From NCBI GenBank assembly GCA_039796775.1, contig JBDKJD010000001.1, forward strand, positions 88,399 through 152,398: 64,000 bases of DNA, in the 5' to 3' direction. Positions 46,287 through 63,543 of this stretch are shown here, piece by piece. Position 1 is the stretch's first letter, and each line of letters opens with the position of its first letter. The notes under the pieces were generated by a model, which saw only the letters and a list, made by a program, of their open reading frames with translations, made no database searches and was not told the origin of the DNA. This stretch comes from Candidatus Parcubacteria bacterium (GTDB taxonomy: Bacteria > Patescibacteriota > Minisyncoccia > Phycocordibacterales > UBA5272). The translations under genes and the position numbers were made by a program.

Positions 46287-48242
46287 ATGTCTCGCCAAAT
46301 CACTTTATCTAATGGAAATATTCTCGTAGCTTTTGATGAGAAGGCTTCTCTTACTGACTTTTTTTATCCTTATGTAGGAGTAGAGAATCATGTTCGTGGA
46401 GACGCTCATAAGATAGGTATTATGTGCAATAATTCTTTTTCTTGGCTATCTGATAATGAGTGGACAGTATCGAGTACTTTACAAAAAGATACCTATATCG
46501 CAATTACTCATTGTTATAACGAGAAGCATTCTGTAGAACTTATCTTCAAAGACTGTGTCTATAATGAGAAGAATATTTTTATACGAGATATACAGGTTAT
46601 CAATCATAGCGACAAAGAAATCGCTTGCAAGCTATTCTTCCATCAAGTCTTTTCTATTTATGGAACACCTCAAGAAGATACTGCATATTATGATCCAAAC
46701 AAAAACGCAATCATTCACTATGAAGGAAGACGTATGTTCTTGGTCTATGCAGAATCGAGCGCCATACCGTTTAGTGATTACAGTATCGGACTCTATGGCA
46801 TAGAGGGCCGTGTAGGCACTTTTAAAGATGCAGAAGATGGAATATTATCCAAGAATCCAATAGAGCATGGGCATGTCGATTCAGTATGTGCAGTCGACAT
46901 GATTCTTCACAAAAAAGAAACTCGTACTGTCTTTTATTGGACCGTAGTCGGAGAAACAAAAAACGAAATCGAAGATTTGCACAACTACGTTCTCTATAAA
47001 AGACCGGAACCACTTATCGAAAGCACAGAAAAGTTTTGGAACGCTTGGCTTAATCGTCAGAATTATATTGCTTGCAAGGATGATGGTGAGTTGCTCGCGT
47101 TATTTAACAAAAGTCTATTCTATATACGCGGGAATATTGATAATCGAGGTGCAATATTAGCATCTCCTGACTCATCGCTTCTTCAACAAGGAAGAGATAC
47201 CTACAGTTATATGTGGCCACGAGATGGGGCACTCACTGTCATGGCGCTTCTTCTTGTTGGAGAATATAACATCTCGAAACATTTCTTTAAATTCTGCAAT
47301 GATGTCATTGAACGTGATGGATATCTCATGCATAAGTACAAAGCTGACAAATCTCTTGGTAGCTCATGGCATTCTTTTGTAAAAAACGGCGTTCCAATAC
47401 TACCGATTCAAGAAGACGAGACGGCTCTTGTAGTAATAGCGCTCTATCAATATTACGAGAAAACAAAAGACATAGACTTTATCGAAATGCATTATAACGA
47501 TGTGATACGCAAAATGGGGATTTTTATGTCAGAGTTCATCGATGAACAAACAGGTCTCCCTCTCCCATCATATGATTTATGGGAAGAGAAACACGGTATC
47601 TCAACCTTCACCGCATCTACTGTATATGGCGCACTCATCGCTGCTTCTAAGTTCGCTTCATTATTCCAAAAAGAACATGACGTGCAACTTTTTGGAGAAA
47701 AAGCAGCTACAATGAAAGAGGCTATTGTCAAACATCTTTATGATAAAGATTTGAAAATGTTTGTTAAGCTTATTAACAAACATGGTTCTGGATATACAAA
47801 AGATATGACATTAGACATGTCGAGTATTTATGGAATTTATACCTACGGAGTATTGCCTTATGATGATAGATTAGTACAAGAATCCATACGAACAATAGAG
47901 AGTAAGCTTGTGCTTCACGATGGAATAACTGGTGTACCTCGATATCAAAAAGACTATTATTTCATGAGAGCAGATGGAGTTTCTAATCCTTGGTTCATCA
48001 CTACATTGTGGCTTGCTCAGTATTATGCAGTCACCGCCAAAGATGAGAAAACATTATCCAAAGTGACTCAAACACTCAAATGGGTGAATCAACATGCGAG
48101 CAAGTCAGGAGTTTTGTCAGAACAACTTCATCCATATACTGGGGAACAATTATCAGCCACCCCTCTCACATGGAGCCACGCTGAATATGTAAGAACATTT
48201 ATCATGTACGAAGAAGCAAAAAAGCGTCTCTCTATCTGCTAA
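46287..48242 (+). CDS. GH15 glucoamylase/glucodextranase (archaeal-type with N-terminal beta domain)
   Basis: (alpha/alpha)6 barrel blocks LWEEKHGISTFTASTVYGAL and EQLHPYTGEQLSATPLTWSHAEY. Confidence 0.8.
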   Translation: MSRQITLSNGNILVAFDEKASLTDFFYPYVGVENHVRGDAHKIGIMCNNSFSWLSDNEWTVSSTLQKDTYIAITHCYNEKHSVELIFKDCVYNEKNIFIRDIQVINHSDKEIACKLFFHQVFSIYGTPQEDTAYYDPNKNAIIHYEGRRMFLVYAESSAIPFSDYSIGLYGIEGRVGTFKDAEDGILSKNPIEHGHVDSVCAVDMILHKKETRTVFYWTVVGETKNEIEDLHNYVLYKRPEPLIESTEKFWNAWLNRQNYIACKDDGELLALFNKSLFYIRGNIDNRGAILASPDSSLLQQGRDTYSYMWPRDGALTVMALLLVGEYNISKHFFKFCNDVIERDGYLMHKYKADKSLGSSWHSFVKNGVPILPIQEDETALVVIALYQYYEKTKDIDFIEMHYNDVIRKMGIFMSEFIDEQTGLPLPSYDLWEEKHGISTFTASTVYGALIAASKFASLFQKEHDVQLFGEKAATMKEAIVKHLYDKDLKMFVKLINKHGSGYTKDMTLDMSSIYGIYTYGVLPYDDRLVQESIRTIESKLVLHDGITGVPRYQKDYYFMRADGVSNPWFITTLWLAQYYAVTAKDEKTLSKVTQTLKWVNQHASKSGVLSEQLHPYTGEQLSATPLTWSHAEYVRTFIMYEEAKKRLSIC

Positions 48243-48250
48243 TATCTATT

Positions 48251-49216
48251 ATGAACATCGATCAATTATTACAACCCTTACGATCATTCAAAGATCAATT
48301 CTTGTATAACCCTACATTAGTTGGGACATTACCTAATACCTATGACGGTGTGATTGTATGCGGGATGGGAGGATCTCTTATCGCAGCTAGGATGACGAAT
48401 CTCCTTTTCCCGGAACTCCCTATTTCATTTCATAATTCATATGGAATACCTAAAAAGACAGAATATGAGAACCCACTCTTTATACTCTCTTCATTTTCTG
48501 GAAACACAGAAGAAATTATCGATACCTACACCCATCTCAAGAAACATTCTCTTCCTTGTGCCATTATCAGTTGTGGAGGGAAGCTGCTTGAATTAGCAAA
48601 GATTGATACTATCCCTTATATAGAACTACCAAAAGATACTCATCTGGAACCTCGCTTTTCTTTGGGGTATCAGATGATTTCTCTCTTATCTATACTTGAA
48701 CAACAATCACTTATCGAGAGATTAAGAGACAGTGTTTCCAAAATCAATACCCCAGAATGTGAGCAAATAGCCGAAACTTTAGTAGATACTTTCAAAGACA
48801 GCTTCCTTGTATTCTATTCAAGCGAGAAATTATCTCCCCTTTCGTATACAATCAAAGCAGCATTAAATGAAGGAGCCAAGATTCCTGCTTTTATCAATAT
48901 TCTTCCGGAGGCTAATCACAATGAATTACAGTCATTTATTATGAATGAATCGCAGTCATATAATGCTTTATTTGGTTTCTTCTTTTTGTCATCACCGTTT
49001 GACCATGAACGAATAACAAAGAGGGTTGATACAATGAAAGCCTTGTATGAAGAAAAGTCTTTCATATGTGAGACATTTATTGTTGATGAGACAAAGATCG
49101 AACAAGTACTCTCTATGCTCTATATCGGATACGCTTACGCAACACTCTTAGCACATAAGCGAAACGTTGATCCTTATCAAACGCCGTTTATTAAAGCATT
49201 CAAAGAATCACTTTAA
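48251..49216 (+). CDS. bifunctional phosphoglucose/phosphomannose isomerase (SIS domain, archaeal-type)
   Basis: GVIVCGMGGSLIAARM SIS motif. About 320 aa, typical of the PGI/PMI family. Confidence 0.7.
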   Translation: MNIDQLLQPLRSFKDQFLYNPTLVGTLPNTYDGVIVCGMGGSLIAARMTNLLFPELPISFHNSYGIPKKTEYENPLFILSSFSGNTEEIIDTYTHLKKHSLPCAIISCGGKLLELAKIDTIPYIELPKDTHLEPRFSLGYQMISLLSILEQQSLIERLRDSVSKINTPECEQIAETLVDTFKDSFLVFYSSEKLSPLSYTIKAALNEGAKIPAFINILPEANHNELQSFIMNESQSYNALFGFFFLSSPFDHERITKRVDTMKALYEEKSFICETFIVDETKIEQVLSMLYIGYAYATLLAHKRNVDPYQTPFIKAFKESL

Positions 49217-49231
49217 TAGTATACTTATTAT

Positions 49232-50032
49232 ATGTTCATACTCATTGATGTTGGGGGTACAAAAACAAGAATAGGTGTAGGAAGAAATGAAGATACCATT
49301 GCTCCACCTGTAGTATTCTCTACTCATAAACAATTTGACACATGGTTGGCGGAAGTACAGACCGTTATGAAAAATCTTTGTAACGACCCTTCTTTAAGAG
49401 GTGTCATCATAGGAATACCGGGCACCTTCACAAAAGATGGGGTGATTATCAAAACACCCAACCTCCCTCTCTGGCAAGGTGTTCCGATACGGCATCATCT
49501 AGAAAAATTATGCAGGTGTGAAATCCATCTCTATAATGACACAGCTCTTGTCGGATTAGGAGAAGCTGTATACGGCGCTGGCAAAGGTCACTCAATAGTC
49601 AGTTATCTCACTATATCAACTGGGGTAAATGGCGTACGCATAGTAGATGGTGCGATTGATAGAAATACTTTTGGATTCGAAATTGGACATTCAATTATTG
49701 ATATAGAACACGATAGAGATGTTGAGTCTCTCATAAGCGGCGGATCACTCGAAAGAGAGTTCGGCAAACCGTCGCATGAAGTACATGATGTAATGTTGTG
49801 GGAGAAGATAAGCAGACGCGCCGGAATATTTGGTGCCAATACCGCTATGTATTGGTCACCGTCTATGATTATCTATGGAGGACCGGTTATGAATGATCTT
49901 CATTTAGAAATAATAGAAAAGGAGGCGAAACGCCACCTCACCATGTTCACCGAGCAACCACTCTTTGTGAGAGGAACTCTTAAAGATTATGGTGGACTTT
50001 ATGGAGCACTCGCGATAAGCAGGAAGATGTAG
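49232..50032 (+). CDS. ROK-family glucokinase
   Basis: N-terminal ILIDVGGTKTRIGV. ROK central region. Confidence 0.8.
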   Translation: MFILIDVGGTKTRIGVGRNEDTIAPPVVFSTHKQFDTWLAEVQTVMKNLCNDPSLRGVIIGIPGTFTKDGVIIKTPNLPLWQGVPIRHHLEKLCRCEIHLYNDTALVGLGEAVYGAGKGHSIVSYLTISTGVNGVRIVDGAIDRNTFGFEIGHSIIDIEHDRDVESLISGGSLEREFGKPSHEVHDVMLWEKISRRAGIFGANTAMYWSPSMIIYGGPVMNDLHLEIIEKEAKRHLTMFTEQPLFVRGTLKDYGGLYGALAISRKM

Positions 50033-50104
50033 TAGTCTAAAAGCAGTTGCTCATTATAATGAGTAATTCGATCTTTTTAATCAACCCTTTAAAGGAGGGT
50101 TGCC

Positions 50105-50365
50105 GTGAAATCAACAGCAAAGACCAAAGAACTTAAGAAAACCGTAAAAACTCTTTCGAGGCAAATAACTTCACTTCAAAGTGTTTTATTTGAAATTCTT
50201 TTTAATATGGAATACTTCAAAGAAAAGAATGTTCGTATAAAAAATAAAAAAGAGTATTTAAGGAACTTGACTCAGAAAGCAAACATGTTGGAAGAAATAT
50301 TAGCAACAAGAGAATTAGAACTTATCATCTTCCGTCACAGACTATTTAGAAAAAGAAACTCCTAG
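50105..50365 (+). CDS. hypothetical coiled-coil protein
   Basis: ORF with alternative (GTG) start; weak. Confidence 0.25.
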   Translation: MKSTAKTKELKKTVKTLSRQITSLQSVLFEILFNMEYFKEKNVRIKNKKEYLRNLTQKANMLEEILATRELELIIFRHRLFRKRNS

Positions 50366-50501
50366 AAACAATCTGAACATGTCTGAAGCCGGTTGGGCTA
50401 CTCAGCAAAAATACGCTGATATTCATCAGCGTATTTTCTTTTACCTTTTTATTCTGTCACACTAAACACTATGCTCTATATTCTGTACCCTACCCCTCTA
50501 T

Positions 50502-52169
50502 CTACCCCCTATCCACATGACTCCACGCGAAGTCTTTATCTCCATGAACTTTCTTGCCAGGGTTCAAGATATTTTCTGGATCAAAAATCTTTTTTGTCTT
50601 TTCAAAGAGGGAGATAATCTCTGGTGAATACATTTTCGGAAGATATGATGTTCTCAAAAGGCCATCATTATGCTCTCCTGACATAGAACCTTGATACTTG
50701 AATATGAGCGTATACACTTCATCCATGAGTGCGTGCAATGTCTCAACTATCCCTTCTTTATGAATATCAACGAGCGGAATAATGTGAAAGTTAGCATCCC
50801 CCATGTGTCCAGCGACGGTATAGATAAGGTCTTTGTATTTTTCTTGACTAAAAATAACTTCAAGTTCAGGGAGGAATTGTGGGAGGTCTTGTGGATGTAC
50901 AACAATGTCATCAATAGTGGGCGCTGTTCTGTACCCTTGCATGCGAGAGCGGAGGAGTGCGAAGCTCTCTCTTCTGAATGTCCAGTATTTTTTGGCTTGG
51001 GATGCGCTTGTTGTTTTTTTGATTGGAAGATTAAACTGCTTCATATCTTCATACGCTTTGGTTACTTTTTCATCAACCTCTTCTTCTGTATCACCAGTGA
51101 ATTCTGCCATAAGAATAATCTTAGGGACACCACCAGTTAACACCATCATGAATTCTGGCAAGAATTGAAGACCTAGAGTGATCATGTTGCCTCCCATGCG
51201 AACGGCGATATCTTTGAAGAATTTCATTGCTATCTTGAAGGTGTGATCATCGTATGACTCGAGTGTCTCTGGCTTATGTTCAAGCATTTTGACAATAATT
51301 TCTCCAAGATGGACGGTGGACGGTACGAACATAACAAGCATTCTCGAATGAGTCTTCGGTGCTACACCATTAAATGTTATAGAACTAACCCCGGCGAGCG
51401 TCCCCTGACTTCCTGCTATGAGGCGCGCGAGATTAAATACTTCGGTCTCTTTGTCATACACATTCCATAAGTAATATCCTGAGGAGTTTTTAGAAACTGA
51501 CGGCTTGGCGCTCATAATGGTGTCATAGTTCTCTGTGATAAGCGTATACATTTCTCTATGAATTCTTCCTCCTTCACCTTTTTCTTGCATTTTTTGTATC
51601 ATCTCTTCTTTGGTAAATACGCGAAGAAGGTCTCTCTCTCCATTAGCATAGACAACATCTAATGACTCAATATACTCTTCTGTCTTACCATAGGTGAGAG
51701 TCTTCTCTCCTCCTGAATTATTAGATACTATACCACCAAGCGCTGCCAATTCTCGAGAAGCTGGATAGCTCGGCATAAGCCACCCTTCTTGAAGCGTTGC
51801 TTTCTCAAAATCACGATAATATACTCCAGGCTCGGCTGTTCCATGTTCCTTAGTCACTTCTCCTATATGATTCATATATCGTGTCGTATCTATAACAATT
51901 GATGTTGAGAGTGGACCTCCTGTCATACAGGTTCCAGCTGCACGGAATGCGACTGATACATCAAATCCTTCTTTCTTCTTTTGATTAACGAGTGTTAAGA
52001 GCGATGAAATATCATGCGCATCTTTTGGATACACAACAAGTTCTGGAACAACATGAAATATACTTGTATCTTTAGATACCTTTTCTCTATCTTCTAAGAG
52101 AAGAGACCCGTCACCTTTGAAAGATACTGAGAGCTCTTTTGCGAATTCTTCGTAATTAATAGTACTCAT
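50502..52169 (-). CDS. FAD-linked oxidase (GlcD / D-lactate dehydrogenase family)
   Basis: PCMH-type FAD-binding N-terminal domain. C-terminal FDPENILNPGK signature. Start placed at the internal Met (MSTINYEEF). Confidence 0.8.
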   Translation of the reverse strand: MSTINYEEFAKELSVSFKGDGSLLLEDREKVSKDTSIFHVVPELVVYPKDAHDISSLLTLVNQKKKEGFDVSVAFRAAGTCMTGGPLSTSIVIDTTRYMNHIGEVTKEHGTAEPGVYYRDFEKATLQEGWLMPSYPASRELAALGGIVSNNSGGEKTLTYGKTEEYIESLDVVYANGERDLLRVFTKEEMIQKMQEKGEGGRIHREMYTLITENYDTIMSAKPSVSKNSSGYYLWNVYDKETEVFNLARLIAGSQGTLAGVSSITFNGVAPKTHSRMLVMFVPSTVHLGEIIVKMLEHKPETLESYDDHTFKIAMKFFKDIAVRMGGNMITLGLQFLPEFMMVLTGGVPKIILMAEFTGDTEEEVDEKVTKAYEDMKQFNLPIKKTTSASQAKKYWTFRRESFALLRSRMQGYRTAPTIDDIVVHPQDLPQFLPELEVIFSQEKYKDLIYTVAGHMGDANFHIIPLVDIHKEGIVETLHALMDEVYTLIFKYQGSMSGEHNDGLLRTSYLPKMYSPEIISLFEKTKKIFDPENILNPGKKVHGDKDFAWSHVDRG

Positions 52170-52233
52170 ATATAACGAGTGTAGCAAAACAAATATGATA
52201 ATCAAATAACACTCTCAAGATAATGAAGGGTGA

Positions 52234-53958
52234 TTATTTGATGGCTTCTTCTAACTTTTTCTCTATTTCTTGTTCTATTACCTCTAATCGCTTCTTAAAC
52301 TTTTTCATAATAGCTTGCTCTTCTTTGGTTAACTCTCTTTTCTTTTCTGCTTTGACCAAAACATCATGGAACTCTTCTACATCTCTACGAAGCGCAGAAA
52401 CATTCATTTCTAAGGTATTCTCTACCTCACGAAGCTTACGCTTAACGTTCCTTCTAAAAAGATTAAATTGAACAAATGCATACCAAAGCGTAGCAATGAC
52501 TGCGAGTAGTGCTATAACAATGATAAGTATCACAGAAAGCCAATTCATCACAAAAATTCCAAATCGAAGAAGTAACATTCTCTCCACTTCTATTACTTTG
52601 ATATTAGTGAAATCACTCACCGCGCCTTTGCTATCAAACACTCTTACCTTCATCTCATACACCCCAGAAGGAATCTTGTCTTTCCACGTGAGACTAAATA
52701 CTCCGACTTCATCTGTAGTTACATCTCTTATTAAGGCTTCGCCGTTTTTGTTGGTGAGTGTTACTTCTACTCTAGAATTAGGATATGAGGCTCCGACTAC
52801 TTTTAATTGAGAATCAAATTCTACTTTTCTGGAATATTCAGTAATGAGAGGTGGATTAATAGCTTGAATAGTGTAATCAAGTGACGCTGTTGAACTGTTC
52901 CCCGCTTGATCAGTAACTGTAATGATAACAGTATGCTTGCCTGGACTTTGTCTTGGGAGTCTATAAATACCTGAATCTTCTTTGGTCATCTCTATGGCTT
53001 GACCTCCATCAATAGAAAGAGAAATAGTCTTGATGCCAGAGAGTGTGTCACTTGAATTAATCACTAAACTTGGAGTGATATTAGTAGTCACTGATCCATC
53101 TGGGAACGTTGCCTGATCAATGGTTGGCGCTTGTGTATCTATTTGAAATTTATACGTAGATACAGCTCCCCATCCGTCAGCATTTTTGAACTGTACCTTC
53201 ATATAAAAGATTCCATCTTCATCCACTGTGAATGATCTACTAGCTACAGGCGGAGTGTAGACCCTTGAAGGGTTGTCTGTTTCTTTGTCTGAATATACCG
53301 TTCTCACAGAAGTAACATTTGAAGAGATTTTCCATTCAAAACTTGCATCTCTTCTTGAATACCAGGCGGTGCTATCTGGATGAGTTGGAGAGGTTATAAC
53401 AGGAAGAGAAAGTTCTACTGGTTCCTTCTCAACAACATTACCCTCTTCTCCTATATAAACAAGCGCAGAACCTGTTGTTTTTAGTACATCTGTCGCATTC
53501 CCGTCATTTAACAATACAGCGCCTTCTTTAATAACAATACTAACATTCCCTGCTTCTTTAGCTTTGAATGTGACTGTTATAACTTTGCCGGTAGCCTTGC
53601 TGTACCCTGGATTAAGAGCAACACCTTCTAGCGAGATTGTGCCTTTTTCATTAGAAAAAGTGGGCTCCTCTGCCCAAAGACTCATAAAAGACCCTGTCTT
53701 AGAAATAGAGATAACTTCAAGAGCATCCTTTGGAAATGTCGCATCAAGCGATACGGCATTAATAGCTTCTGTATTATTGGTAACATTAAAATCTACTTTG
53801 AATGTTCTCCCAACTGACGTAGAAACAGACGAAGGAGATACTATTAAGTTAGCAGCACTTACATATAACTGACTAGAGATACAAACAAATAGAGCGACCG
53901 CTATAAGAAGACTATTTTTTATTGAGGGGGTGGCGATATGCATGTATGATAATAACAA
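52234..53958 (-). CDS. surface protein with N-terminal cohesin-like domain, Ig-like repeats, C-terminal TM and coiled-coil tail
   Basis: Cohesin-like beta-sandwich pattern (TFKVDFNVTNN..AINAVSLDATFPKDALEVISI...KGTISLEGVAL...KVITVTFKAKEAGNVSIVI). TM helix VMNWLSVILIIVIALLAVIATLW. Confidence 0.55.
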   Translation of the reverse strand: MLLSYMHIATPSIKNSLLIAVALFVCISSQLYVSAANLIVSPSSVSTSVGRTFKVDFNVTNNTEAINAVSLDATFPKDALEVISISKTGSFMSLWAEEPTFSNEKGTISLEGVALNPGYSKATGKVITVTFKAKEAGNVSIVIKEGAVLLNDGNATDVLKTTGSALVYIGEEGNVVEKEPVELSLPVITSPTHPDSTAWYSRRDASFEWKISSNVTSVRTVYSDKETDNPSRVYTPPVASRSFTVDEDGIFYMKVQFKNADGWGAVSTYKFQIDTQAPTIDQATFPDGSVTTNITPSLVINSSDTLSGIKTISLSIDGGQAIEMTKEDSGIYRLPRQSPGKHTVIITVTDQAGNSSTASLDYTIQAINPPLITEYSRKVEFDSQLKVVGASYPNSRVEVTLTNKNGEALIRDVTTDEVGVFSLTWKDKIPSGVYEMKVRVFDSKGAVSDFTNIKVIEVERMLLLRFGIFVMNWLSVILIIVIALLAVIATLWYAFVQFNLFRRNVKRKLREVENTLEMNVSALRRDVEEFHDVLVKAEKKRELTKEEQAIMKKFKKRLEVIEQEIEKKLEEAIK

Positions 53959-54874
53959 CAGAAGCTAACACAAGTAACACACTCACTATGATACTATTAA
54001 GTATACTGAATAGACGCTGTTTTGTATTTAAGTTTTCAACAGTAGATATAGTTTTGATAGTATAATCACCACTCATATATTCAATATAGAGATGTATATA
54101 GTCTCCTCTTTCTTTGCTGATGACATACGGTAATGATATTTCTTGCCACAAAGAAGAAGTAACATTTGGTTCCGTGCTTTCATTTGACTGAATTAATTTA
54201 ACGAAACGAATAGGACTATAGAGTTTAGTATCCGTGAGGGTGATATACGTTTTTTGACTCTCCAGAGAACTGTCATCCATCAAAAGCAGCTCGATAGAAT
54301 TAATGTCTTTTCTATTGAGCGATAAGGCTGGTACTGTATTTTGATTAGCTACATTTGTGATAGTGAACATATGCTCTTTGGTTCTAGACGTGAGCACTGT
54401 AGCCTTCTCATCAAATGCATGAACTTGAACATTATCAAACAATATAACACCTTTGCCATTACTTTTAGGAGTAAGGAGTATAGTGAATAACTTTCCTTTA
54501 GTGAACGGATTTCCTGACCCAACATATGTATGTGACCACCCACCGATAAAAATACCTTCGAAAGATATAGTACTTCGTTTATTCAACGTATCTTTTTGTA
54601 GAGTGGGCTGAGTGACCCACAAAGGAACAATAGAGTCATAAAGTGATATTGTATAAAGAGACAACATTTCTTCTGGGAAAGAAATACTCCCTGAGACCCC
54701 ACTTACCACACTCCCCTCACTGTCCATATACACAGTAACTGGTACCACCTGAACTCCGTTTATTATTGTCGGTGCATTCACTTCAAAAGACACAGCGTAT
54801 ACACCATGCCATGTGCTTATTACTATACCTATACTAAAGAGTAATTTTTTGTACATAGTTATCCGGTCCAACAA
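53912..54874 (-). CDS. surface protein with cohesin-like domain and C-terminal TM anchor
   Basis: VQVVPVTVYMDSEGSVVSGVSGSISFPEEMLSLYTI...GKLFTILLTPKSNGKGVILF matches the cohesin pattern. C-terminal TM. Confidence 0.55.
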   Translation of the reverse strand: MLDRITMYKKLLFSIGIVISTWHGVYAVSFEVNAPTIINGVQVVPVTVYMDSEGSVVSGVSGSISFPEEMLSLYTISLYDSIVPLWVTQPTLQKDTLNKRSTISFEGIFIGGWSHTYVGSGNPFTKGKLFTILLTPKSNGKGVILFDNVQVHAFDEKATVLTSRTKEHMFTITNVANQNTVPALSLNRKDINSIELLLMDDSSLESQKTYITLTDTKLYSPIRFVKLIQSNESTEPNVTSSLWQEISLPYVISKERGDYIHLYIEYMSGDYTIKTISTVENLNTKQRLFSILNSIIVSVLLVLASVVIIIHAYRHPLNKK

Positions 54875-55824
54875 TAAGCCAAGATACTTAAATCAGTCAA
54901 ATTAATAGCTCCATCATTACTTAGATCAACTTCTTTGGGAAAAGAATTTCTCTTATACCAAAATGCCATAATACTAAAATCAAAAATGTTAACCCTGTTA
55001 TCGTTATTCAAATCGCAGTGCTTTCTAAAACCAAATAAGAGAGAATTATTGGTTCTTGTTACATTTTTGTCCCCTATAATAAACCCAATTGGAGAAGAGA
55101 ATCCGGACGTCGCTTGTGTGATGATTGACTTAGCCTTAACAACATACTCTCCATATACGAGAATACTACTTGGTAATGAATATTTCCACATACCCTTATT
55201 GTCTGCTTTGGTTTTGATAATATATTCTTCGTCATCGCTATCTTTTTTGAAGAACATAACACGTATATCAGCATGCGGTGTCGCTTCTCCAAAAAAAAGA
55301 ATACTTTCTCCCATCTTCACCTCTATCTTGTCAGATGTAATAGTAGGAGGAATCAAAATACCTTCAACTAATGTCATCACCCCCTCTTGTATAAAGATAC
55401 TAAACGATAAGAGAACTGAGAATCTTCCCGACGTGTCTACCGCTTGAACACCAAAACTATATACACCCTGACTGAGTGTTGGTGATGATATTTCAAATGA
55501 GCCATCACCATTTGCTCTCACTTCGTTAACTACGAGACCGTTACGAAGAAGTCTTACTTTTGACTCACCGTATGCCACACCCCTAAAAAGAGCAACATTA
55601 ACGAACGAGCTCGTATTGATCGGACCTGGGTTAATCGGTGGAGTATCAGGATATACAAGTGGTGGGGTTGGTACTACGGCAGTAATAGTTACACCTTCAT
55701 AAAGAGGATTCTGCGCTTGACCAAAAACGGTAACAAAAGGGAACGTGTTAGAGAAAAGTACTGTTACAAGTGTAATCAGCCCGACTATTTTCCGGATGCT
55801 TTTTGAGCTTGTTTGATGATCCAT
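54859..55824 (-). CDS. secreted protein with C-terminal type-I dockerin domain
   Basis: Two about 22-residue Ca-binding dockerin repeats, DLNNDNRVNIFDFSIM and DLSNDGAINLTDLSIL, at the extreme C-terminus. N-terminal signal anchor and Ig-like middle. Confidence 0.7.
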   Translation of the reverse strand: MDHQTSSKSIRKIVGLITLVTVLFSNTFPFVTVFGQAQNPLYEGVTITAVVPTPPLVYPDTPPINPGPINTSSFVNVALFRGVAYGESKVRLLRNGLVVNEVRANGDGSFEISSPTLSQGVYSFGVQAVDTSGRFSVLLSFSIFIQEGVMTLVEGILIPPTITSDKIEVKMGESILFFGEATPHADIRVMFFKKDSDDEEYIIKTKADNKGMWKYSLPSSILVYGEYVVKAKSIITQATSGFSSPIGFIIGDKNVTRTNNSLLFGFRKHCDLNNDNRVNIFDFSIMAFWYKRNSFPKEVDLSNDGAINLTDLSILAYCWTG

Positions 55825-56753
55825 TGATTATATTTCTTAAGCGCTAGAGTGAGTGCAAGTATCACAACAAGCAAAGAAACAAGGACAACAACAAGAAGCT
55901 GCCAAGGGAACATGAAGTAGGTAATAGATGATTCTGACTTACCTTCATTACCAAAGGAAAGTGAAAGTGTCGCTGTATACATACCAAGAGCAAAGTTATT
56001 CATTTGATAGGTAACATGTTCAAAGAATGGTGCAGAGGCAGCTGGTGCTTCATATGATCCTAGACGAGCTTCGAACTTTCGTGTGCTTCCTGGTAATACA
56101 TTTCCCTCTGTTTTGTTGGCGTTGATTTTTGTAACTTCGAATCCAAGCGTATTAGTAATAACAATATCACCTAATGGCTTTACTCTGTCATTACCACTAT
56201 TAGTAAAACGGTATTCAAAATCAACTGGAAGTGAGCTAAGTGTCTTTGTGTCACCTTTTATGGTGAATGACGATACACCCCCCTCTTCTTTTACATCACC
56301 TGTAACCTTGAGTAAAATAAGCATCCCGACTTTAGCACCTACAGATACCTGACTGCTGTCAGCAGACGGAGGAACAGTTGAGAGGAATATCGCCGCGAAA
56401 TGTCCCCCTGACTGAGCATCTGCTGGGACACTGATTGTATACGGGAGCGAAACTCTTTCACCTGGTTTAATAGTCACCTTATCAGTAACAGTTACCCATG
56501 TAGGAAGACCTTCTGTTGCTTTTGTGAAATTAGGAGTACCTGATTCACCTTGAGAGTCAAAAGCTTCTACTGAAGTATAAAATGTTTGTTCAGTATCTTG
56601 ATCATTAATAATAAGGAAGGTTTTTGAAATAGCCTCTCCTTTGTCAGCGGTTAATTCTTCACGCGCAGGCGAAATAGTAAGAGCGTTCAGAACGAGTGCA
56701 GGTGCCAGAAACAGTGAGATAATGGCGAAGAATTTTTTGGTAAATGATTTCAT
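55785..56753 (-). CDS. DUF916/DUF3324-like cell-surface protein with C-terminal TM anchor (CscA-like)
   Basis: Signal peptide, two beta-rich domains, C-terminal FPWQLLVVVLVSLLVVILALTLALKK anchor. Matches the CscA-type anchor architecture of WxL/Csc loci. Confidence 0.5.
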   Translation of the reverse strand: MKSFTKKFFAIISLFLAPALVLNALTISPAREELTADKGEAISKTFLIINDQDTEQTFYTSVEAFDSQGESGTPNFTKATEGLPTWVTVTDKVTIKPGERVSLPYTISVPADAQSGGHFAAIFLSTVPPSADSSQVSVGAKVGMLILLKVTGDVKEEGGVSSFTIKGDTKTLSSLPVDFEYRFTNSGNDRVKPLGDIVITNTLGFEVTKINANKTEGNVLPGSTRKFEARLGSYEAPAASAPFFEHVTYQMNNFALGMYTATLSLSFGNEGKSESSITYFMFPWQLLVVVLVSLLVVILALTLALKKYNQWIIKQAQKASGK

Positions 56754-56785: not shown

Positions 56786-57877
56786 TTAGAAGTTGGCAGT
56801 TGCTACATAAGTTAGGTTAGCAGCATATATACCGGCTTCTGTTATTCCAGCAACGTTAGCCAAATAACGCAGTGACAATGTAGAAGTGTTGGTTACACCA
56901 GACCCTGTAGCAAACAAAGACGGTGTCGATGAAGAAGCATCGAATCCGTATGATGTTGAGAATCTGTACGTATCGTCGACAGTTACCCCTGTTCCACCTG
57001 ATTCAGTCGCTCGTATCGCGAACTGCTCAGTACCAGGAGTTGAAGAAGCTGCAACAGCACCTATTGCTGTGATTGTATTAAGAGAGTTTTGTTGTGATGT
57101 GAGCGTGTCACCTCTTACTGTTATAGCGAAACCAAAAGGTGCATTAGTGGAGATGGCGAGTGTGTGTGCAATAGTTTCTGCTGAATCTCCTGCTGTGTTT
57201 GTAGAGGAAGCGAACTTGGCACCACCTGAAGAGAGGTTACCAAAATAAATTGTTGTAGTAGAAATAGTGAATGTAAGAGATTGTTGAACAGTACCAGTCA
57301 TAGATACAGTATCGTCTGGAACAATATATGTACTTATTGAACCAGTATCTCCGAATGTTCCTGCAATAGTGATTTCGTATGTTCCTGGAGTTCCTGGATT
57401 AGTGATTTGAGAAACACCTGTTGCTCCAAATGTCGCATTAGATCCGATTTGGATTTGAATACAACGATTCGCTGGAATCACAGCAGTACCTGATGTGAGA
57501 GTGATAGTCTGAGAAGACTGTGAAGTTCCCCATGTTAGAGCTGATGCCGCGCCGGCTTGTAATTGAGCATCACTGAAACCAGAACACGTAGCTGAGGTTG
57601 ATGTAGCTAAGTCAAGGTTGTTGACGTTAAATGTCCCCATTGTATACCCAGCTGGAAACGTAATAGTTATTGTCTGCCCTGCTGTTAATCCGGTTGGAGT
57701 AACGAACTGGATAGTGTGATCTGATAATGTACTTTGTTGTACTGATGACTGTGTATTAGAAAGACTAGTCAAAGAAGCAGCGAGTACTAACTCTACGTGA
57801 ACAAAAGAAGCTCCAATCGCAAGAAGAGCAATAGTAACTAATGTTGTTAATTTTTTAAATAATGTAGTAAGTAACAT
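56786..57877 (-). CDS. secreted surface protein, paralog 1 (shared C-terminal ...YVATANF domain)
   Basis: Signal peptide. About 65-70% identical to the neighbouring 367-aa gene. C-terminal 170 aa shared with the 1094-aa protein. Confidence 0.6.
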   Translation of the reverse strand: MLLTTLFKKLTTLVTIALLAIGASFVHVELVLAASLTSLSNTQSSVQQSTLSDHTIQFVTPTGLTAGQTITITFPAGYTMGTFNVNNLDLATSTSATCSGFSDAQLQAGAASALTWGTSQSSQTITLTSGTAVIPANRCIQIQIGSNATFGATGVSQITNPGTPGTYEITIAGTFGDTGSISTYIVPDDTVSMTGTVQQSLTFTISTTTIYFGNLSSGGAKFASSTNTAGDSAETIAHTLAISTNAPFGFAITVRGDTLTSQQNSLNTITAIGAVAASSTPGTEQFAIRATESGGTGVTVDDTYRFSTSYGFDASSSTPSLFATGSGVTNTSTLSLRYLANVAGITEAGIYAANLTYVATANF

Positions 57878-58096: not shown

Positions 58097-59200
58097 TTAA
58101 TAGTTAGCAGTAGCAACATAAATAAGGCTTGCCACATATGTTCCCGCTTCAGTTAAACCAGAAATATTGGCTACATAACGTAAGGAATAGGTTGTTGTGT
58201 TGGTTGCTCCAGATCCTGTAGCTAAGACCGAAGGGGTTGTGGATGAGGCATCGAATCCATATGATGTAGTGAATATATAGGTTGGATCAATCGTTGCCCC
58301 TGTACCACCAGAGACTGTTGCTCGTATACCGAACTGTTCAGAGCCGAGTGTGGAAGAAGCAGCAGTGACCCCCATAGCTGTAATCGTATTAGCAGCCAAC
58401 TGCTGAGAAGTGAGCGTATCCCCACGTATGGTTATCGTATATCCAGAGGGAGCATTTGTGGCTATCCCAAGCGTGTGTGCGATGGTTTCTGTTGAATCTC
58501 CTGCGGTGTTTGTGGAAGAGGCGAACTTGTCATCACCTGCGGACAAGTTACCAAAATAAATTGTTGTCGTAGAGATGGTGAATGTAAGAGACTGTTGAAC
58601 GGTAGCACTAATGAGGACTGTATCATCTGTAATGATATTTTGAGTAATTGTCCCATTATCAGCCCCCACTATAATGGTAATAGCGTATGATCCTGGGGTG
58701 GTTGGATTAGTGATCTGAGTGACTCCTGTTGCTCCAAATGTCGCATTAGATCCTATTTCTATTTGAACACAACGATTCGCTGGAATCACAGCAGTACCTG
58801 AGGTGATATATACAGTCCCTGTTGCTTGAGTTACACCCCATGTCAAAGCTGACGGTGCGCCGGACTGTAATTGAGCATCACCAAACCCTGAACAGGTAGC
58901 TGACGTTGATGTAGCTAAATCAAAGTTAGCAACAGCAAATGTCCCTGTTGCATAGTTTGAAGGGAAGGTAATACTAATAGCCTGGCCAGCGGATAATCCA
59001 GTTGGTGTCACAAATTGTATTGTGTGATTAGATAATGTGTTGACCTTAAGAGAGCTTTGAGTGTCTGACAGGCTCGAGAGAGCGGCTGCGTGAGCGAGTT
59101 CAACGTGAACAATAGAAGCTCCGAGTGCGATAGAGAAGATGGTGCAGAAAGCAAAGAATTTATGTAGCTTAGAAGTTGTTGTATTGAAGACACTTATCAT
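58097..59200 (-). CDS. secreted surface protein, paralog 2 (shared C-terminal ...YVATANY domain)
   Basis: Tandem duplicate of 56786-57877, with long identical DNA stretches. Confidence 0.6.
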   Translation of the reverse strand: MISVFNTTTSKLHKFFAFCTIFSIALGASIVHVELAHAAALSSLSDTQSSLKVNTLSNHTIQFVTPTGLSAGQAISITFPSNYATGTFAVANFDLATSTSATCSGFGDAQLQSGAPSALTWGVTQATGTVYITSGTAVIPANRCVQIEIGSNATFGATGVTQITNPTTPGSYAITIIVGADNGTITQNIITDDTVLISATVQQSLTFTISTTTIYFGNLSAGDDKFASSTNTAGDSTETIAHTLGIATNAPSGYTITIRGDTLTSQQLAANTITAMGVTAASSTLGSEQFGIRATVSGGTGATIDPTYIFTTSYGFDASSTTPSVLATGSGATNTTTYSLRYVANISGLTEAGTYVASLIYVATANY

Positions 59201-59264: not shown

Positions 59265-62200
59265 TTAGAAGTTAGCGGTTGCAATATACACAAGAGCAGC
59301 GGAGTACTCATTCGCCTCTGTTGTTGGAGTAATATTCACAAGATAACGGACAGAGAATGTGGTAGTAGCATTATCCCCAACCCCTGTCGCTACGGTGCTT
59401 GGAGTTGAAGATGACGCATCGAAAGCGAATCCAGAAAGCGCGTAAGGAGATGACACGACACCACTTCCTCCACTCGCTGTTAATCGCACTCCGAACTGTT
59501 CAGTACCTGGGGTGGATACTGTGTTAACACCTCCTATTTGAGTAATAGTTGTAGATCCTGCAGTTAATGTATCCCCTTGTAGGGTTACTGTGTACCCGTT
59601 GATGGCATTTGTATTAACAATGAGAGAGTGGGCTTCTACTTCAACATCACTCCCTAAAAGAGATGTAGACGAAGCATATCTCGCTTGAGCGGACAACGCT
59701 GTCCCAAAATAAACAGAAGAAGTGGACACAGAGAAAGAAAATACTTGCGGACTAGAAGATGAGTTACTCGCCTCTTGCCATTCTAAGAGCATGCGATACC
59801 TCACGTTAGCATCACCTTGAGTCTGTTCATTATAAAGCGCCAACCCTTCCCCTTCTTTAAGGATAAGCTCGTCACCGTAATATATATCTGAATCAAAAAC
59901 TCCCGACGGTTGGTTAACTAACCCTGGTGTGGCTATTCCTAATACTCTAGAAGAGGTGGATTGCAAAAACCCAATTGTCGGACCTGTTGTACGTATATCG
60001 GCGGTCGAAGTCGAAGATCCTGAATGCTTGCGCGGGACACTCGTAGTTGCAACAACTGTTCCACCAGTAGCACTTCCTATTTTTCGTATACTGACTGGTT
60101 GATACACAGGAGCAACTACAGTACCACTACGATTAGCTCTGATACCTAGTTTTTTGACTATATAATTTTTACCTGAACCTATTGGATTAAAAAAAGAAGT
60201 ATAAGCATACCCAAGTGTCGTTGACTGATTGATTGGACCACTCGTGTACAAATATTCACTCAGCGTGGAAGGAGCGGAGCTCTCTTCATCCCATTCGAAT
60301 AATATTTTTACTCTAAAGTCAGCATCCCCGGCTGCTGTATCATGATACAATCCAACACCTTCTCCGGGTCGTAAGATTATAGGCTCTTTGTTATCAAATG
60401 TAATTTCTTTATATGCAGTTTGTGCGGCTGCAGCAGACGATACAGCACCTTGAGTTTGTACAGCTAATAATTTTGAGTCGGTGGTGCCTGAATATGTAGC
60501 AGTGACTCCCGTACGTCGTAGTTCGACAACACTGTTAACTGTACCTGTATGCTTTTTGGGAATACTGGTAGAAGCTATTTGAGTTCCGGCAGATGCTGCA
60601 CTTATGCGCCTTAATTGCATCGGGATATACACTGCCGTGTTCACACTATCGATTCTCATTTGCATTCTTTTTATGATTGCAGTCTTGCCTGACCCAGAGG
60701 GATTAAAAAAGGTTGCATAATTATATGAAGTTGCTGTACTACCGTTAATATCGCCTATATCTATAAGATATTCTCCTTGTGAAGACGGAGCTGAGCCTTC
60801 TTCATCCCATTCAACAAAAGTCCTCACATAATTATCCACATCACCAAGAGCAGCATTATAAAGAGCTACCCCCTCTCCTGGCTGAAGGATAATTTTTTCA
60901 TTATTACCTAACACCATCTCCCTTTGACCTATTGTCTGTCCAACAGCCCCAGGGGAAGTGACAGTCATGAAGTTAGCATCCGTAGTCCCGCTATAGGTAG
61001 CAGTGATCGCTGATGCACATGCGGCCCCACACCATCTCACTTCCATAACACTATCAGCTGTCCCTGTATGTTTTTTTGGGAGGGCCCCTGCTGCGATAAG
61101 CGTTCCACCTGAAGCTGTCGTAATTCTCCTGTAACTATACGAGACATATACTCCTGTTGAGTCAGCATCTACTTGAATTCCTAACTTTTTTATCACTATA
61201 TTTTTGCCTGATCCTACAGGATTAAAAAAAGAATAATGGGTGGTGTTAGCAGCAGCGGCAGCTTCTATACGATTCGATGCCCAAATATATTCTCCTTGCG
61301 AAGCTGGGGTATTCACCGCATCGACTTCTTCCCATTCTATAATCATGCGCACAAGTTGATCTAAATCCCCTGCTGTTTCTGAAATGAGAGCAACTCCTTG
61401 TCCAGCTTGAAGAATTAGCTTCTCGTCATTTTGATGAAAATTAATTTCTTTCCACCCGGTTGCCTGTGCTGTTGTACCACAAGGTGTAACACTTCCGATA
61501 CGAGCATCCACCCCTCCTGCTGTTGTTGTTGAGACAGTTACCCCAGTGCGCCGGAATTCCATAAAAGAATCAGCTCCACCTGTATGCTTTTTGGGGATAC
61601 TTGAGGTTGCGATAAGTGTTCCTCCAGTGGCAGATGATATTCTCTGAAGAATAATATTATTAGTATAGACAGCTGCAGCGTCGCATGTCTCCGTACCAAA
61701 CCAAATACGTTTAACTATCGCGGTCTTACCAGATGCAGAAGGGTTAAAAAAACTATTATAGGTATACCCAGGTGTTGTAGTGATTTCTACTCTTGGGAAT
61801 GCGAACAAGAATTCATTTTGGGGCGTGGGGGCATTCACCGTCTCTTCCCATTCATATAACACTCTAATTGATGTACCGACAGTCCCAGCTGCTTCTTGAT
61901 ATACAGCAATACCTTCTCCTGGTTGAAGAATAATCTTTTCATCTTGATCTCCAAAAGTAATATTTCGAGAACTATAATAAGCGCCCACAGCTCCAGAAAG
62001 AGGCTGTCCAAGAATACGAGAATCAGCAGTTCCAGAAAAAGTAACCGTTGGCCCAGAATGACGTATCTCAGCTATGGAGTTGCTTGAGCTCGCATTTTTT
62101 TGTGGAAAGTCTGCAGCTAAAATTTGAGTGCCCAGTGAGGAGGCCGAGATTCTACGTGCAGAGAGGTTGACATAGTTAGACGCGGTAGATGTAGAGACAG

Positions 62201-62549
62201 TATCAGAGCGTATAGCGAGCCTTTTTATTGCTACCGTCTTCCCTGATCCTGCTGGGTTAAAAAAAGCTGAATATACATAATTAGCTGATACAGATCCATT
62301 CACCGGACCAACATCAAGCATATATTCTTTCTCGTTTGGGTTAATCGCGGCTGAAGCTTTTGAAGGGGAAGAGAAGATGGTATCCACTACATTCTTATTG
62401 AGAGAAGCCAAATATATTTTGTCTACAATTTTCCCGTGTTTGTTTTTTTGGCTTACGGTTTGGAATAAACTAACAATAGCTTCTGGATTAAATCCAGACA
62501 AAAAAAGTTGCACAATCAAAAGCGATGTAAGGATTCTTCTAATCAGCAT
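59265..62549 (-). CDS. giant secreted surface protein: 5 tandem about 165-aa repeats plus shared C-terminal ...YIATANF domain
   Basis: Signal peptide. Repeats each contain FFNPxxSGK(T/N)..IK(R/K), PKKH(T/S)G, ILQPGEG.ALY and EWEE blocks. C-terminus is homologous to the two upstream paralogs. Confidence 0.65.
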   Translation of the reverse strand: MLIRRILTSLLIVQLFLSGFNPEAIVSLFQTVSQKNKHGKIVDKIYLASLNKNVVDTIFSSPSKASAAINPNEKEYMLDVGPVNGSVSANYVYSAFFNPAGSGKTVAIKRLAIRSDTVSTSTASNYVNLSARRISASSLGTQILAADFPQKNASSSNSIAEIRHSGPTVTFSGTADSRILGQPLSGAVGAYYSSRNITFGDQDEKIILQPGEGIAVYQEAAGTVGTSIRVLYEWEETVNAPTPQNEFLFAFPRVEITTTPGYTYNSFFNPSASGKTAIVKRIWFGTETCDAAAVYTNNIILQRISSATGGTLIATSSIPKKHTGGADSFMEFRRTGVTVSTTTAGGVDARIGSVTPCGTTAQATGWKEINFHQNDEKLILQAGQGVALISETAGDLDQLVRMIIEWEEVDAVNTPASQGEYIWASNRIEAAAAANTTHYSFFNPVGSGKNIVIKKLGIQVDADSTGVYVSYSYRRITTASGGTLIAAGALPKKHTGTADSVMEVRWCGAACASAITATYSGTTDANFMTVTSPGAVGQTIGQREMVLGNNEKIILQPGEGVALYNAALGDVDNYVRTFVEWDEEGSAPSSQGEYLIDIGDINGSTATSYNYATFFNPSGSGKTAIIKRMQMRIDSVNTAVYIPMQLRRISAASAGTQIASTSIPKKHTGTVNSVVELRRTGVTATYSGTTDSKLLAVQTQGAVSSAAAAQTAYKEITFDNKEPIILRPGEGVGLYHDTAAGDADFRVKILFEWDEESSAPSTLSEYLYTSGPINQSTTLGYAYTSFFNPIGSGKNYIVKKLGIRANRSGTVVAPVYQPVSIRKIGSATGGTVVATTSVPRKHSGSSTSTADIRTTGPTIGFLQSTSSRVLGIATPGLVNQPSGVFDSDIYYGDELILKEGEGLALYNEQTQGDANVRYRMLLEWQEASNSSSSPQVFSFSVSTSSVYFGTALSAQARYASSTSLLGSDVEVEAHSLIVNTNAINGYTVTLQGDTLTAGSTTITQIGGVNTVSTPGTEQFGVRLTASGGSGVVSSPYALSGFAFDASSSTPSTVATGVGDNATTTFSVRYLVNITPTTEANEYSAALVYIATANF

Positions 62550-63543
62550 ATGATACGTATGAATATACTTGTTCGCTTATTTCTTTGAACAATGCTTGTA
62601 TCTCTGTTTTATCGAGCTCACCTTTTTTGTTTTGAGCTATCATTACCGTGAGGAGATATGGTCTCCCTTTAGCATAGACAATCCCTGAGTCAGCCATCAC
62701 CTTCTCATCTATTCTAACACCCGTCTTGTGTACAAAAGGTACATCTTTTGGAATACCAAGAGACAAGAATTCATCTGGCTCTCTCTTTAAGATAGAGAGG
62801 AACGATTCTGAATGATACTGATCTAAGAATGTCGCATTATAGAGAGATCTAAAAAATATAGAGTATCGCTTCGCGGTGATACGATTATCAACATTATCAA
62901 AATCTTTTTTGTTGCGCTTTAACCCTTCTATAACATCATCCATACCAAGGTGGACAAACACATCTTCCAATTCCCCTCCTTCAATATTACGCAATAATAC
63001 GAAATGTGCTGTATTGTCAGAATTAATAAGAGATTCTTCAATAAATCGCTTAATTGAATGTGTCGTCCCTGTATCTTCTTTATACATGAATCCGAATTCT
63101 GTATCTTTGTCCTGGTCGAGGATAACAAGCTCATTATCTAACTTCCATTTTTTGTCTTGAACCTTTTTCATTGCAGCCATCGCCACTGGAATTTTTATAA
63201 GACTAGCTGGCCAAATTTTAACGTCTTTATGTGTCGAAATATTCGCCCCAGTTGGGAAGTATTCAAAATAAATCGAAATCGTATAGTCGGTTCTCTTTTC
63301 ATAGTCTTGCAACTTTTCTTTCAACTCTTGGAAGTCGACGATTAAGTTACGCTTATCCAAAATAGCAAGTGAAGGATTAAGAAGAGATTGAGAATCACTC
63401 ACAGCACTTCGTTCAGAAAAAATAAAATAAACGACAACTGATAACAATATCAAAGAAATAGTAATCGACACAGTCGCTATCAACCGATACGGCACAGCTC
63501 TTGTGCGATTATGCTCTTTGTTAAAATTATAATAAGGTTTCAT
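62539..63543 (-). CDS. class-A beta-lactamase / penicillin-binding-like serine hydrolase, membrane-anchored
   Basis: SxxK (PASLIKIP), SDN (LINSDNT) and KTG (VHKTGV) in the correct order and spacing. N-terminal TM. Stop overlaps the start of the giant surface gene by 11 nt. Confidence 0.7.
   Translation of the reverse strand: MKPYYNFNKEHNRTRAVPYRLIATVSITISLILLSVVVYFIFSERSAVSDSQSLLNPSLAILDKRNLIVDFQELKEKLQDYEKRTDYTISIYFEYFPTGANISTHKDVKIWPASLIKIPVAMAAMKKVQDKKWKLDNELVILDQDKDTEFGFMYKEDTGTTHSIKRFIEESLINSDNTAHFVLLRNIEGGELEDVFVHLGMDDVIEGLKRNKKDFDNVDNRITAKRYSIFFRSLYNATFLDQYHSESFLSILKREPDEFLSLGIPKDVPFVHKTGVRIDEKVMADSGIVYAKGRPYLLTVMIAQNKKGELDKTEIQALFKEISEQVYSYVSYAD

Follow-up and report, generated by a model that had tools for sequence, protein, structure and literature searches.

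Pili of the Pam type were described in 2026 in Candidatus Mycosynbacter amalyticus, that is, in one species of Saccharimonadia (bioRxiv 10.64898/2026.03.03.709456). In a Pam pilin, one linker strand joins an N-terminal domain to a C-terminal Ig-like domain that is open, and in assembly this linker fills the C-terminal domain of the pilin that comes next; two chaperones, PamC and PamD, have C-terminal membrane helices (bioRxiv 10.64898/2026.03.03.709456). PamR is predicted from AlphaFold models to be the terminator, which inserts an N-terminal strand into the last pilin and anchors the fibre by its own membrane helix, and cohesin or dockerin is mentioned nowhere in this preprint (bioRxiv 10.64898/2026.03.03.709456). 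Here we analyse a stretch of 64,000 nucleotides (nt) from an ultra-small Candidatus Parcubacteria bacterium (metagenome-assembled genome, GenBank assembly GCA_039796775.1, contig JBDKJD010000001.1, positions 88,399 to 152,398 of the forward strand), called the window below, in which three adjacent genes, A, B and C, encode one dockerin protein and two membrane-anchored cohesin proteins. We think the odds slightly favour the view that A, B and C together are a surface anchor built on a non-cellulosomal cohesin-dockerin pair, which closes a Pam-type pilus operon. All features of this operon and of the cassette lie on the minus strand, and coordinates are those of the window.

Non-cellulosomal cohesin-dockerin pairs are a known class according to the account of Peer et al. 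(2009, FEMS Microbiol Lett 291:1) given in PMC10066038. The cassette resembles them in that cohesin and dockerin reside on proteins without cellulases, and the Clostridium perfringens structures 2vo8, 2jh2 and 2w1n are among its structural matches, as is the non-cellulosomal cohesin 2xdh of Archaeoglobus fulgidus (E = 8e-9 and TM-score 0.78 against the model of C). It differs from them in being a fixed set of three genes, one dockerin and two helix-anchored cohesins, found across many lineages of the candidate phyla radiation (CPR), in often forming the last part of a pilus operon, and in having cohesins too diverged for the Pfam model PF00963. Anchoring scaffoldins of cellulosomes (OlpA/OlpC of C. 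thermocellum, 3ul4 and 4dh2; ScaE of R. flavefaciens, 2zf9) likewise offer a surface-fixed single cohesin to a dockerin partner, and the cohesins of OlpC and OlpA are among the best structural matches of C. Those scaffoldins are held by S-layer homology (SLH) domains or by sortase, whereas B and C have a C-terminal membrane helix, followed in C by a cytoplasmic coiled coil, and their cargo would be neither an enzyme nor an enzyme scaffold. In other pili, a dedicated last subunit ends growth and fixes the fibre to the envelope, namely PapH in chaperone-usher pili and the basal pilin with the housekeeping sortase in Gram-positive pili. Anchoring by the cassette would differ from both in being non-covalent and Ca2+-dependent, with neither an outer-membrane usher nor a peptidoglycan link. 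The literature searched gave no account of a cohesin-dockerin cassette in CPR bacteria, nor of cohesin-dockerin in the anchoring of pili. The essential "dockerin" SEML1_0315 of Southlakia was set aside as belonging to a different system, since it is a stand-alone protein of 927 amino acids (aa) with no cohesin neighbours (PMC10633639).

The dockerin protein A

The three open reading frames (ORFs), which the earlier note had read as a dockerin gene and two cohesin-like genes, are all present on the minus strand: A at 54859..55824 (321 aa), B at 53912..54874 (320 aa by the ORF list), and C at 52234..53958 (574 aa by the ORF list). With the starts of the ORF list, the overlaps are 40 nt between the chaperone-like gene upstream and A, 16 nt between A and B, and 47 nt between B and C. 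From the NCBI gene calls of identical proteins and from the DNA, B is likely to start in truth at ATG 54856 (314 aa) and C at ATG 53943 (569 aa); these starts leave a gap of 2 nt after the stop of A and an overlap of 32 nt between B and C. A, B and C are translationally coupled under either set of starts, and all three proteins are exported by Sec.

A is a secreted adaptor composed of a signal peptide, a donor-like strand, a Pro-rich linker, two Ig-like domains, and a C-terminal dockerin, and by hydropathy it has no membrane helix beyond the signal peptide. Its C-terminus reads ...CDLNNDNRVNIFDFSIMAFWYKRNSFPKEVDLSNDGAINLTDLSILAYCWTG, so that the duplicated Ca2+-binding segment quoted for this end by the earlier note is indeed there, and the Pfam model Dockerin_1 (PF00404) matches aa 271-315 at 26.6 bits (cut-off 22.9, E = 6.8e-6). 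Among eight other members of the A family, the same model scores 26-42.6 bits in seven and 17.5 bits, under the cut-off, in P0324. A profile made from A and five syntenic orthologues finds solved dockerins in PDB (2y3n_B with E = 7.6e-5, CelS 1daq/2mte with E of about 3e-3, and also 2vn5_B), with both Ca2+ loops aligned.

The dockerin (54862..55017, aa 270-321) contains the loops DLNNDNRVNIFD and DLSNDGAINLTD, with a helix after each of them. A type I dockerin has two segments, each with a 12-residue Ca2+ loop whose Asp/Asn ligands stand at positions 1, 3, 5, 9 and 12. Loss of the Ca2+-coordinating positions had been named beforehand as a ground for abandoning the assignment; across 63 species they are nearly invariant, being kept in 55-63. 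In loop 1, Asp is found at position 1 in 62, at position 5 in 62, and at position 12 in 63, and Asn, Ser or Asp at position 3 in 63; the corresponding counts for loop 2 are 55, 62, 63 and 63, the window's A having Ser at position 3 of this loop. The two halves are strongly symmetric (DFSIMAFWY versus DLSILAYCW), and the dockerin is the best-conserved part of A among orthologues. Cys270 and Cys318 bracket it (C-DLNND...AY-C-WTG) and co-occur in the close clade, where they may form a disulfide clasp joining the ends of the domain. In many other members of the family both residues are substituted, the last by Tyr, His, Asn or Phe, and a few members keep a shifted or lone Cys.

The A family is very large: 2158 cluster representatives match at E <= 1e-3, and at E <= 1e-30 there are still 288. 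When a match to A consists of a single stretch, the alignment nearly always reaches both the last residue of A and the end of the matched protein, and the same dockerin terminates all 34 family members that were retrieved. In long forms of A, fibronectin type III (FN3), Cys-rich or other passenger domains precede a constant module of a Gly/Pro-rich linker, two Ig domains, and the dockerin. P0368 and a gene of locus L084 (2912-4366) have a pilin-type N-terminal domain fused straight onto the two-Ig-plus-dockerin module, and P0368 has additional dockerin-like repeats.

The membrane-anchored cohesin proteins B and C

B and C both start with a signal peptide. In B, this is followed by a cohesin domain (54350-54799, aa 26-175), a second β-sandwich (aa 190-278 in the AlphaFold2 model), and a C-terminal membrane helix (53933-54031, aa 282-314) seen in both hydropathy and the model. 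C is composed of a cohesin domain (53443-53856, aa 35-172), an Ig-like stalk (52579-53403, aa 186-460), a membrane helix found by hydropathy (52474-52560, about aa 467-495), and a cytoplasmic coiled-coil tail (52237-52473, aa 496-574). The C-terminal helices of both proteins, and the Ig-like repeats and coiled-coil tail of the longer one, had been read in this way before and are borne out, the stalk by matches to Pfam Big_13 (E = 2e-13) and Big_6-like domains and the tail by its heptad register.

The AlphaFold2 model of C aa 30-190, made from a 21-sequence alignment, has a mean predicted local distance difference test score (pLDDT) of 88 and a predicted TM-score (pTM) of 0.81. In Foldseek, its best match is CaCohA2 (6kgf_C; E = 2.8e-10, TM-scores 0.71/0.77, root-mean-square deviation 2.7 Å), and cohesins of types I to III, 2xdh included, make up 41 of the 42 top PDB matches. 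For the full-length model of B (pLDDT 89.7, 57 sequences) the top 12 matches are all cohesins; the best is 2w1n (E = 2e-9), a construct of cohesin and FN3 that mirrors the two-domain ectodomain of B, and 2vo8 is matched with a TM-score of 0.73. By profile comparison, the N-terminal domain of B is homologous to that of C (probability 95.6%, E = 1.2e-8). An NCBIfam scan of B and C gave no cohesin match, and the C-family profile searched against PDB sequences found no cohesin, only Ig-like adhesin repeats. The Pfam and NCBIfam models miss B and C, whose membership among the cohesins is read from the fold.

The two cohesin proteins evolve at very different rates. C has at least 319 homologues, and the 120 listed are 55-67% identical to it over nearly the full length, the self-match aside; 2 of these 120 have a precomputed PF00963 match. 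Orthologues of B are only 24-33% identical, a homologue search with the single sequence recovered B alone, and the family could be gathered only via a profile of syntenic orthologues. Within the same set of genomes, identity is about 28-30% for B, 41-49% for A and 55-67% for C, and B thus evolves far faster than A and C. The segment of C with the highest conservation, above that of its cohesin domain in a 27-sequence alignment, is the tail (...EEFHDVLVKAEKKRELTKEEQAIMKKFKKRLEVIEQEIEKKLE), which has 79 residues, is rich in Lys and Glu, and keeps an unbroken heptad register with 68% hydrophobic residues at positions a and d. It matches no family. Such conservation could reflect a conserved intracellular partner or an oligomer, and we mention only as a speculation that the tail makes an intracellular contact or oligomerises.

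Co-inheritance and correlated divergence of the cassette

A scan of species-representative genomes found relatives of A on at least 415 contigs, 80 of which were fetched. By record title they belong to Paceibacterota/Parcubacteria, Magasanikbacteria, Azambacteria, Kaiserbacteria, Jorgensenbacteria, Portnoybacteria, Staskawiczbacteria, Harrisonbacteria and Torokbacteria. Hidden Markov models (HMMs) built from the alignments of this analysis were applied to the fetched loci. In 71 of the 72 loci with enough downstream sequence, at least two cohesin genes come after the dockerin gene on its strand; in these 71 the first cohesin gene is B-like, encoding about 300-330 aa, and the second C-like, and L084 is the sole assessable locus with no cohesin genes downstream. 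A chaperone-like gene stands directly upstream of A in 33 of the 60 loci with enough upstream sequence, and 27 of these 60 have Pam-type pilins. The median A measures 327 aa in loci that have the chaperone-like gene and 443 aa in the others. The dockerin is also nearly always single: the window and each of the first six related loci have one dockerin ORF, and of the 80 loci fetched later only in L085 does a further ORF match the dockerin, at a distance of about 8 kb. Some metagenome-assembled genomes of third-party assembly (TPA) that carry the cassette are titled "uncultured Gammaproteobacteria" or "Candidatus Saccharibacteria" (loci L028, L036, L044, L055, L072-L074, L079 and L083-L085, plus many "Saccharibacteria" titles); judged by gene content, these labels look unreliable.

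The dockerin and the cohesins also diverge together. Over 63 complete A/B/C triplets, pairwise distances between dockerins correlate with those of the cohesin of C (r = 0.82) and the cohesin of B (r = 0.73), and with those of A's own Ig domains at only r = 0.43. In partial Mantel tests, the dockerin correlates with C given B at 0.62 (p = 0.001), with B given C at 0.35 (p = 0.001), and with A's Ig domains given C at 0.10 (p = 0.057). This correlated divergence, which is no proof of contact, is compatible with co-evolution of dockerin and cohesin and favours C as the main partner. Likewise, sequence conservation suggests that a near-invariant dockerin would pair more naturally with the conserved cohesin of C than with the variable one of B. 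What the earlier note had proposed at its core, a surface tether made of one dockerin and two membrane-anchored cohesin proteins, thus stands on the dockerin HMM, the cohesin structures and the co-inheritance in 71 of 72 loci, and from these sequences and models we regard a cohesin-dockerin tether as probable.

The pilus operon upstream and its possible link to A

The locus next to the cassette had been described as Csc-like. This description did not survive: no WxL or DUF916/DUF3324 match was found in Pfam at E <= 1 on the seven genes of the block that were scanned, and the Csc cluster of Firmicutes was rejected in favour of the NCBIfam models of Pam pilins, which do match. What adjoins the cassette is a CPR operon for a donor-strand-exchange pilus of the Pam type. 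NF058581 (CPR_Pam_pilin_C, cut-off 55 bits) matches two shaft pilins, one of 367 aa (58097..59200; 69.2 bits; linker/donor strand DDTVLISATV) and one of 363 aa (56786..57877; 62.8 bits; DDTVSMTGTV), as well as a giant pilus protein of 1094 aa (59265..62549; 69.6 bits). The 367-aa pilin has an N-terminal domain, the linker strand and an acceptor domain at the C-terminus, and in both window pilins the linker, (I/V)xDDTVxxxxTV, stands directly ahead of the C-terminal domain. A motif I(I/L)xDDTVxISATV occupies the position just before this domain in 15 pilins from 6 genomes. The giant protein comprises five internal repeats of ~170 aa, in all of which the motif Y..(S/T/A)FFNPxGSGK...(I/V)K(R/K) recurs, and then the Pam C-terminal acceptor domain; it has no donor linker, its best score with the pilin-linker matrix being 3.9 against 31-32 in the shaft pilins. 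Since the acceptor domain is present and the donor strand absent, it is judged from its sequence to be the probable tip subunit of the pilus. Weak matches of the giant protein to AAA_22 and HypB fall on its P-loop-like repeat motif and were discarded as probably spurious. In L005 and L006, its place is taken by two genes of about 450 aa.

Between the pilins and A lies a gene for a 322-aa protein (55785..56753) with a signal peptide, a β-rich ectodomain and a C-terminal membrane helix (aa 276-309), for which Pfam gave weak Ig-like matches only. Because its position and architecture are like those of PamC and PamD (bioRxiv 10.64898/2026.03.03.709456), we consider it a candidate for a membrane-anchored chaperone of that kind. 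The order of the operon is kept in five further contigs, running from a β-lactamase-like gene through the giant or large genes, two to three pilins, the chaperone-like gene, and A, B and C to a flavin adenine dinucleotide (FAD) oxidase.

The feature of A that connects it with these pilins is a donor-like strand, YEGVTITAVV (55672..55701, aa 42-51), which lies just past the signal peptide and is followed by the Pro-rich linker PTPPLVYPDTPPINPGPI (55600-55671). It is the best match within A to a position matrix made from 15 pilin linkers and, being an isolated strand on a flexible tether, it can form no domain of its own; Pro/Gly-rich linkers likewise follow the donor-like strands of A proteins from loci with a chaperone-like gene. 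Among 95 short members of the A family, the best matrix match falls in the region after the signal peptide in 49, where 15.9 would be expected (binomial p = 8e-15), and the strand is found there in 25 of the 33 loci with a chaperone-like gene as against 4 of the 27 without (Fisher p = 2.2e-6), both p-values being overstated because the sequences are related. In some genomes the strand is nearly identical to that of the pilins, as in L048 (DDVVSISATV) and L058 (NDNISISAIV), to be compared with the pilin linker DDTV(S/L)ISATV. It also tracks the pilin variant of the lineage: in L004 and L024, A has ...LNVNAIV and the pilins have ...VQVNAIV.

In its place and build A resembles PamR. The genes of both stand near the end of an operon of the Pam type, downstream of those for the pilins and chaperone-like proteins, and both have an additional N-terminal β-strand, proposed to insert into the last pilin, ahead of two Ig/FnIII-like domains. 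They differ at the other end, PamR having its own C-terminal membrane helix while A terminates in a dockerin and the helix is on separate cohesin proteins. The Pam model requires a strand-donating, membrane-tethered terminator, which supports A as the pilus anchor.

Proposed mechanism

From the folds, topology, motifs, co-inheritance and correlated divergence described above, and from the association of the strand with pilus operons, we infer the following course of events. Starting at the giant tip protein and continuing through the two shaft pilins, the pilus would be extended by donor-strand exchange, helped by the membrane-anchored chaperone-like protein. The last shaft pilin would then receive the N-terminal strand of A in its open C-terminal domain, and growth would stop there, A having no acceptor domain. 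The dockerin of A may dock in a Ca2+-dependent manner onto the cohesin of C and/or B, C being the better candidate. B and C are fixed by their C-terminal helices and hold their cohesins at the membrane-distal N-terminus; that of B would sit near the membrane on a single stalk domain, and that of C farther away, on a stalk of three to four Ig-like domains. The fibre would thus be ordered as giant tip protein, shaft pilins, A, cohesin and membrane, and A with B/C may be regarded as a split, two-piece, non-covalent counterpart of PamR. Genomes without pilus genes keep the anchor together with an A that bears passenger domains, and for this reason the same anchor, carrying A with its own N-terminal passenger, would serve more generally as a display device.

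The pilus itself is the likely cargo of the tether, and judged from sequence the chance that the cassette acts as a pilus anchor is about even. The wider proposition, in which cohesin-dockerin provides the non-covalent, Ca2+-dependent anchor of a donor-strand-exchange pilus, the cassette is general in Parcubacteria/Paceibacteria, and the tail of C perhaps links the base of the pilus to the cell interior, is put forward tentatively and as somewhat short of even.

Weighing of the proposal

Several results weigh against the proposed anchor. No chaperone-like gene lies beside the cassette in 27 of the 60 assessable loci, and the cassette is thus not dependent on a pilus. The strand of A in the window scores only 7.2 with the pilin-linker matrix, compared with 31-32 for true pilin linkers, and none of the E-values obtained with an HMM of the 13-residue linker was significant, which is why the test on the position of the best match took its place. 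The chaperone-like protein has no homologue among PDB sequences or in NCBIfam or Pfam models. Homology to PamR was rejected by sequence both for A (NF058578 at 13.5 bits with a cut-off of 300, E = 0.024; 2 of 37 family members match) and for B, which has no NF058578 match. As for the cohesin-like domains that the earlier note had assigned to B and C, the assignment fails with the HMM, PF00963 having no match to either protein at E <= 1 and matching only 2 of 57 members of the B family weakly (E = 0.04), and passes clearly in structure comparison, where cohesins are the top matches. Finally, mirror-tree correlations such as those between dockerin and cohesin can stem from shared local evolutionary rates alone.

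Some of these results would suit a cassette that is a general anchor for surface display with no physical link to a pilus, A being a displayed adhesin or spacer and its placement reflecting co-regulation of envelope genes. To this would fit the loci where no chaperone-like gene is detectable, in which A is longer (the median of 443 aa given above) and carries FN3, Cys-rich or other passengers, and the weak absolute score of the strand in the window. However, where the chaperone-like gene is present A is without a passenger and its isolated strand resembles the pilin linker of the same genome, the genes overlap from the chaperone-like gene to C, and the operon would otherwise have no terminator or anchor; we hold this explanation to be unlikely, if still worth serious attention. 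It is quite improbable that the cohesin-like domains of B and C are instead pilin-handling assembly factors, similar to a chaperone, an usher or PamR, with the dockerin as a Ca2+-stabilised end module or a binder of another ligand such as a host glycan. The pam operon of M. amalyticus does have two membrane-anchored chaperones and a two-domain PamR where only one chaperone-like gene is found here, and the two-domain model of B matches RbmA, the fold namesake of PamR, with E of about 1e-4. But these RbmA matches have TM-scores of only about 0.2, cohesins come out best in the structure comparison for B as well as for C, with no PapD/FimC chaperone in the top 50, and the NCBIfam PamR model misses B; moreover, in 71 of 72 genomes, pilin-less ones included, B and C are found with the dockerin gene, and the cohesins diverge in correlation with the dockerin.

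The modules themselves, together with GH15 and GH57 genes nearby on the other strand, might recall a minimal cellulosome-like scaffold for polysaccharide degradation. This was rejected, and we give it practically no credence: no dockerin is borne by an enzyme, no multi-cohesin scaffoldin is present, and no carbohydrate-binding module (CBM) matches A, B or C. Each cohesin protein has a single cohesin domain, the window and the fetched loci have one dockerin ORF each (L085 excepted), never on a carbohydrate-active enzyme, in agreement with the observation made beforehand that no glycoside hydrolase is attached, and the GH15, GH57, GT5, ROK and PGI genes form a conserved block of the opposite strand. 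Adhesion between cells, in which the dockerin of A or the cohesins of B and C would bind modules on host or sister cells, is hardly more credible. CPR bacteria are typically episymbionts, and the cohesin of B evolves fast (24-33% identity between orthologues), as would be expected for a host-facing surface. Yet both partners lie side by side in one genome and diverge together, we know of no host-side partner, and the suggestion of the earlier note that partner-cell proteins might be tethered found nothing in its support.

Neighbouring genes and variant loci

The first gene of the block (62539..63543) encodes a membrane-anchored serine hydrolase, similar to class A β-lactamases and to penicillin-binding proteins, with an N-terminal hydrophobic segment (Beta-lactamase2, E = 9e-35), and it overlaps the giant pilus gene by 11 nt. 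Of 40 related loci that extend at least 9 kb upstream, 19 have a homologue there on the same strand, and some of these are pilin-less. Its membership in the system is uncertain; the protein might remodel the cell wall for the surface structure. In L036, L040 and L073, which have no pilins, the order is the bla-like gene, a gene for a 137-aa membrane protein, a long A, B and C.

A different, smaller fimbrial set stands upstream of A-B-C in L053 (6298-9651; Magasanikbacteria, MFQZ01000010.1). It encodes a 711-aa protein with a weak match to TafC fimbrial proteins (E = 3e-7), a pilin-like protein of 168 aa and one domain, whose N-terminal strand reads GTVTATVTV and whose C-terminus reads ...NVDLTVQAVAN, and a protein of 196 aa that has both a signal peptide and a membrane helix.

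Directly after C in the window lies a gene for an FAD-linked oxidase (50502-52205). On the opposite strand of the region 43821-52205, genes for a ROK kinase, a PGI-like protein, GH15, GH57 and GT5 form one block, which looks like a set for glycogen metabolism. The FAD oxidase and this block are syntenic with the pilus/cohesin block in L001 and L003-L006, in relatives that are only about 55-65% identical.

Biological meaning

CPR bacteria, which account for a large part of bacterial diversity, live attached to other microbes. In genomes of the Parcubacteria type there are Pam-like operons that end in the cohesin-dockerin trio and show no detectable homologue of PamR. The identification of the modules is solid, and the mechanism of pilus anchoring is what we infer, with good motive, from them and their surroundings. 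If it is true, a function would be assigned to three widespread families of "hypothetical" proteins, cohesin-dockerin biology would reach past enzyme complexes to the anchoring of an organelle, and a third way of fixing pili to the envelope would stand beside ushers and sortases. Furthermore, a small natural membrane-anchored cohesin-dockerin pair could serve for surface display.

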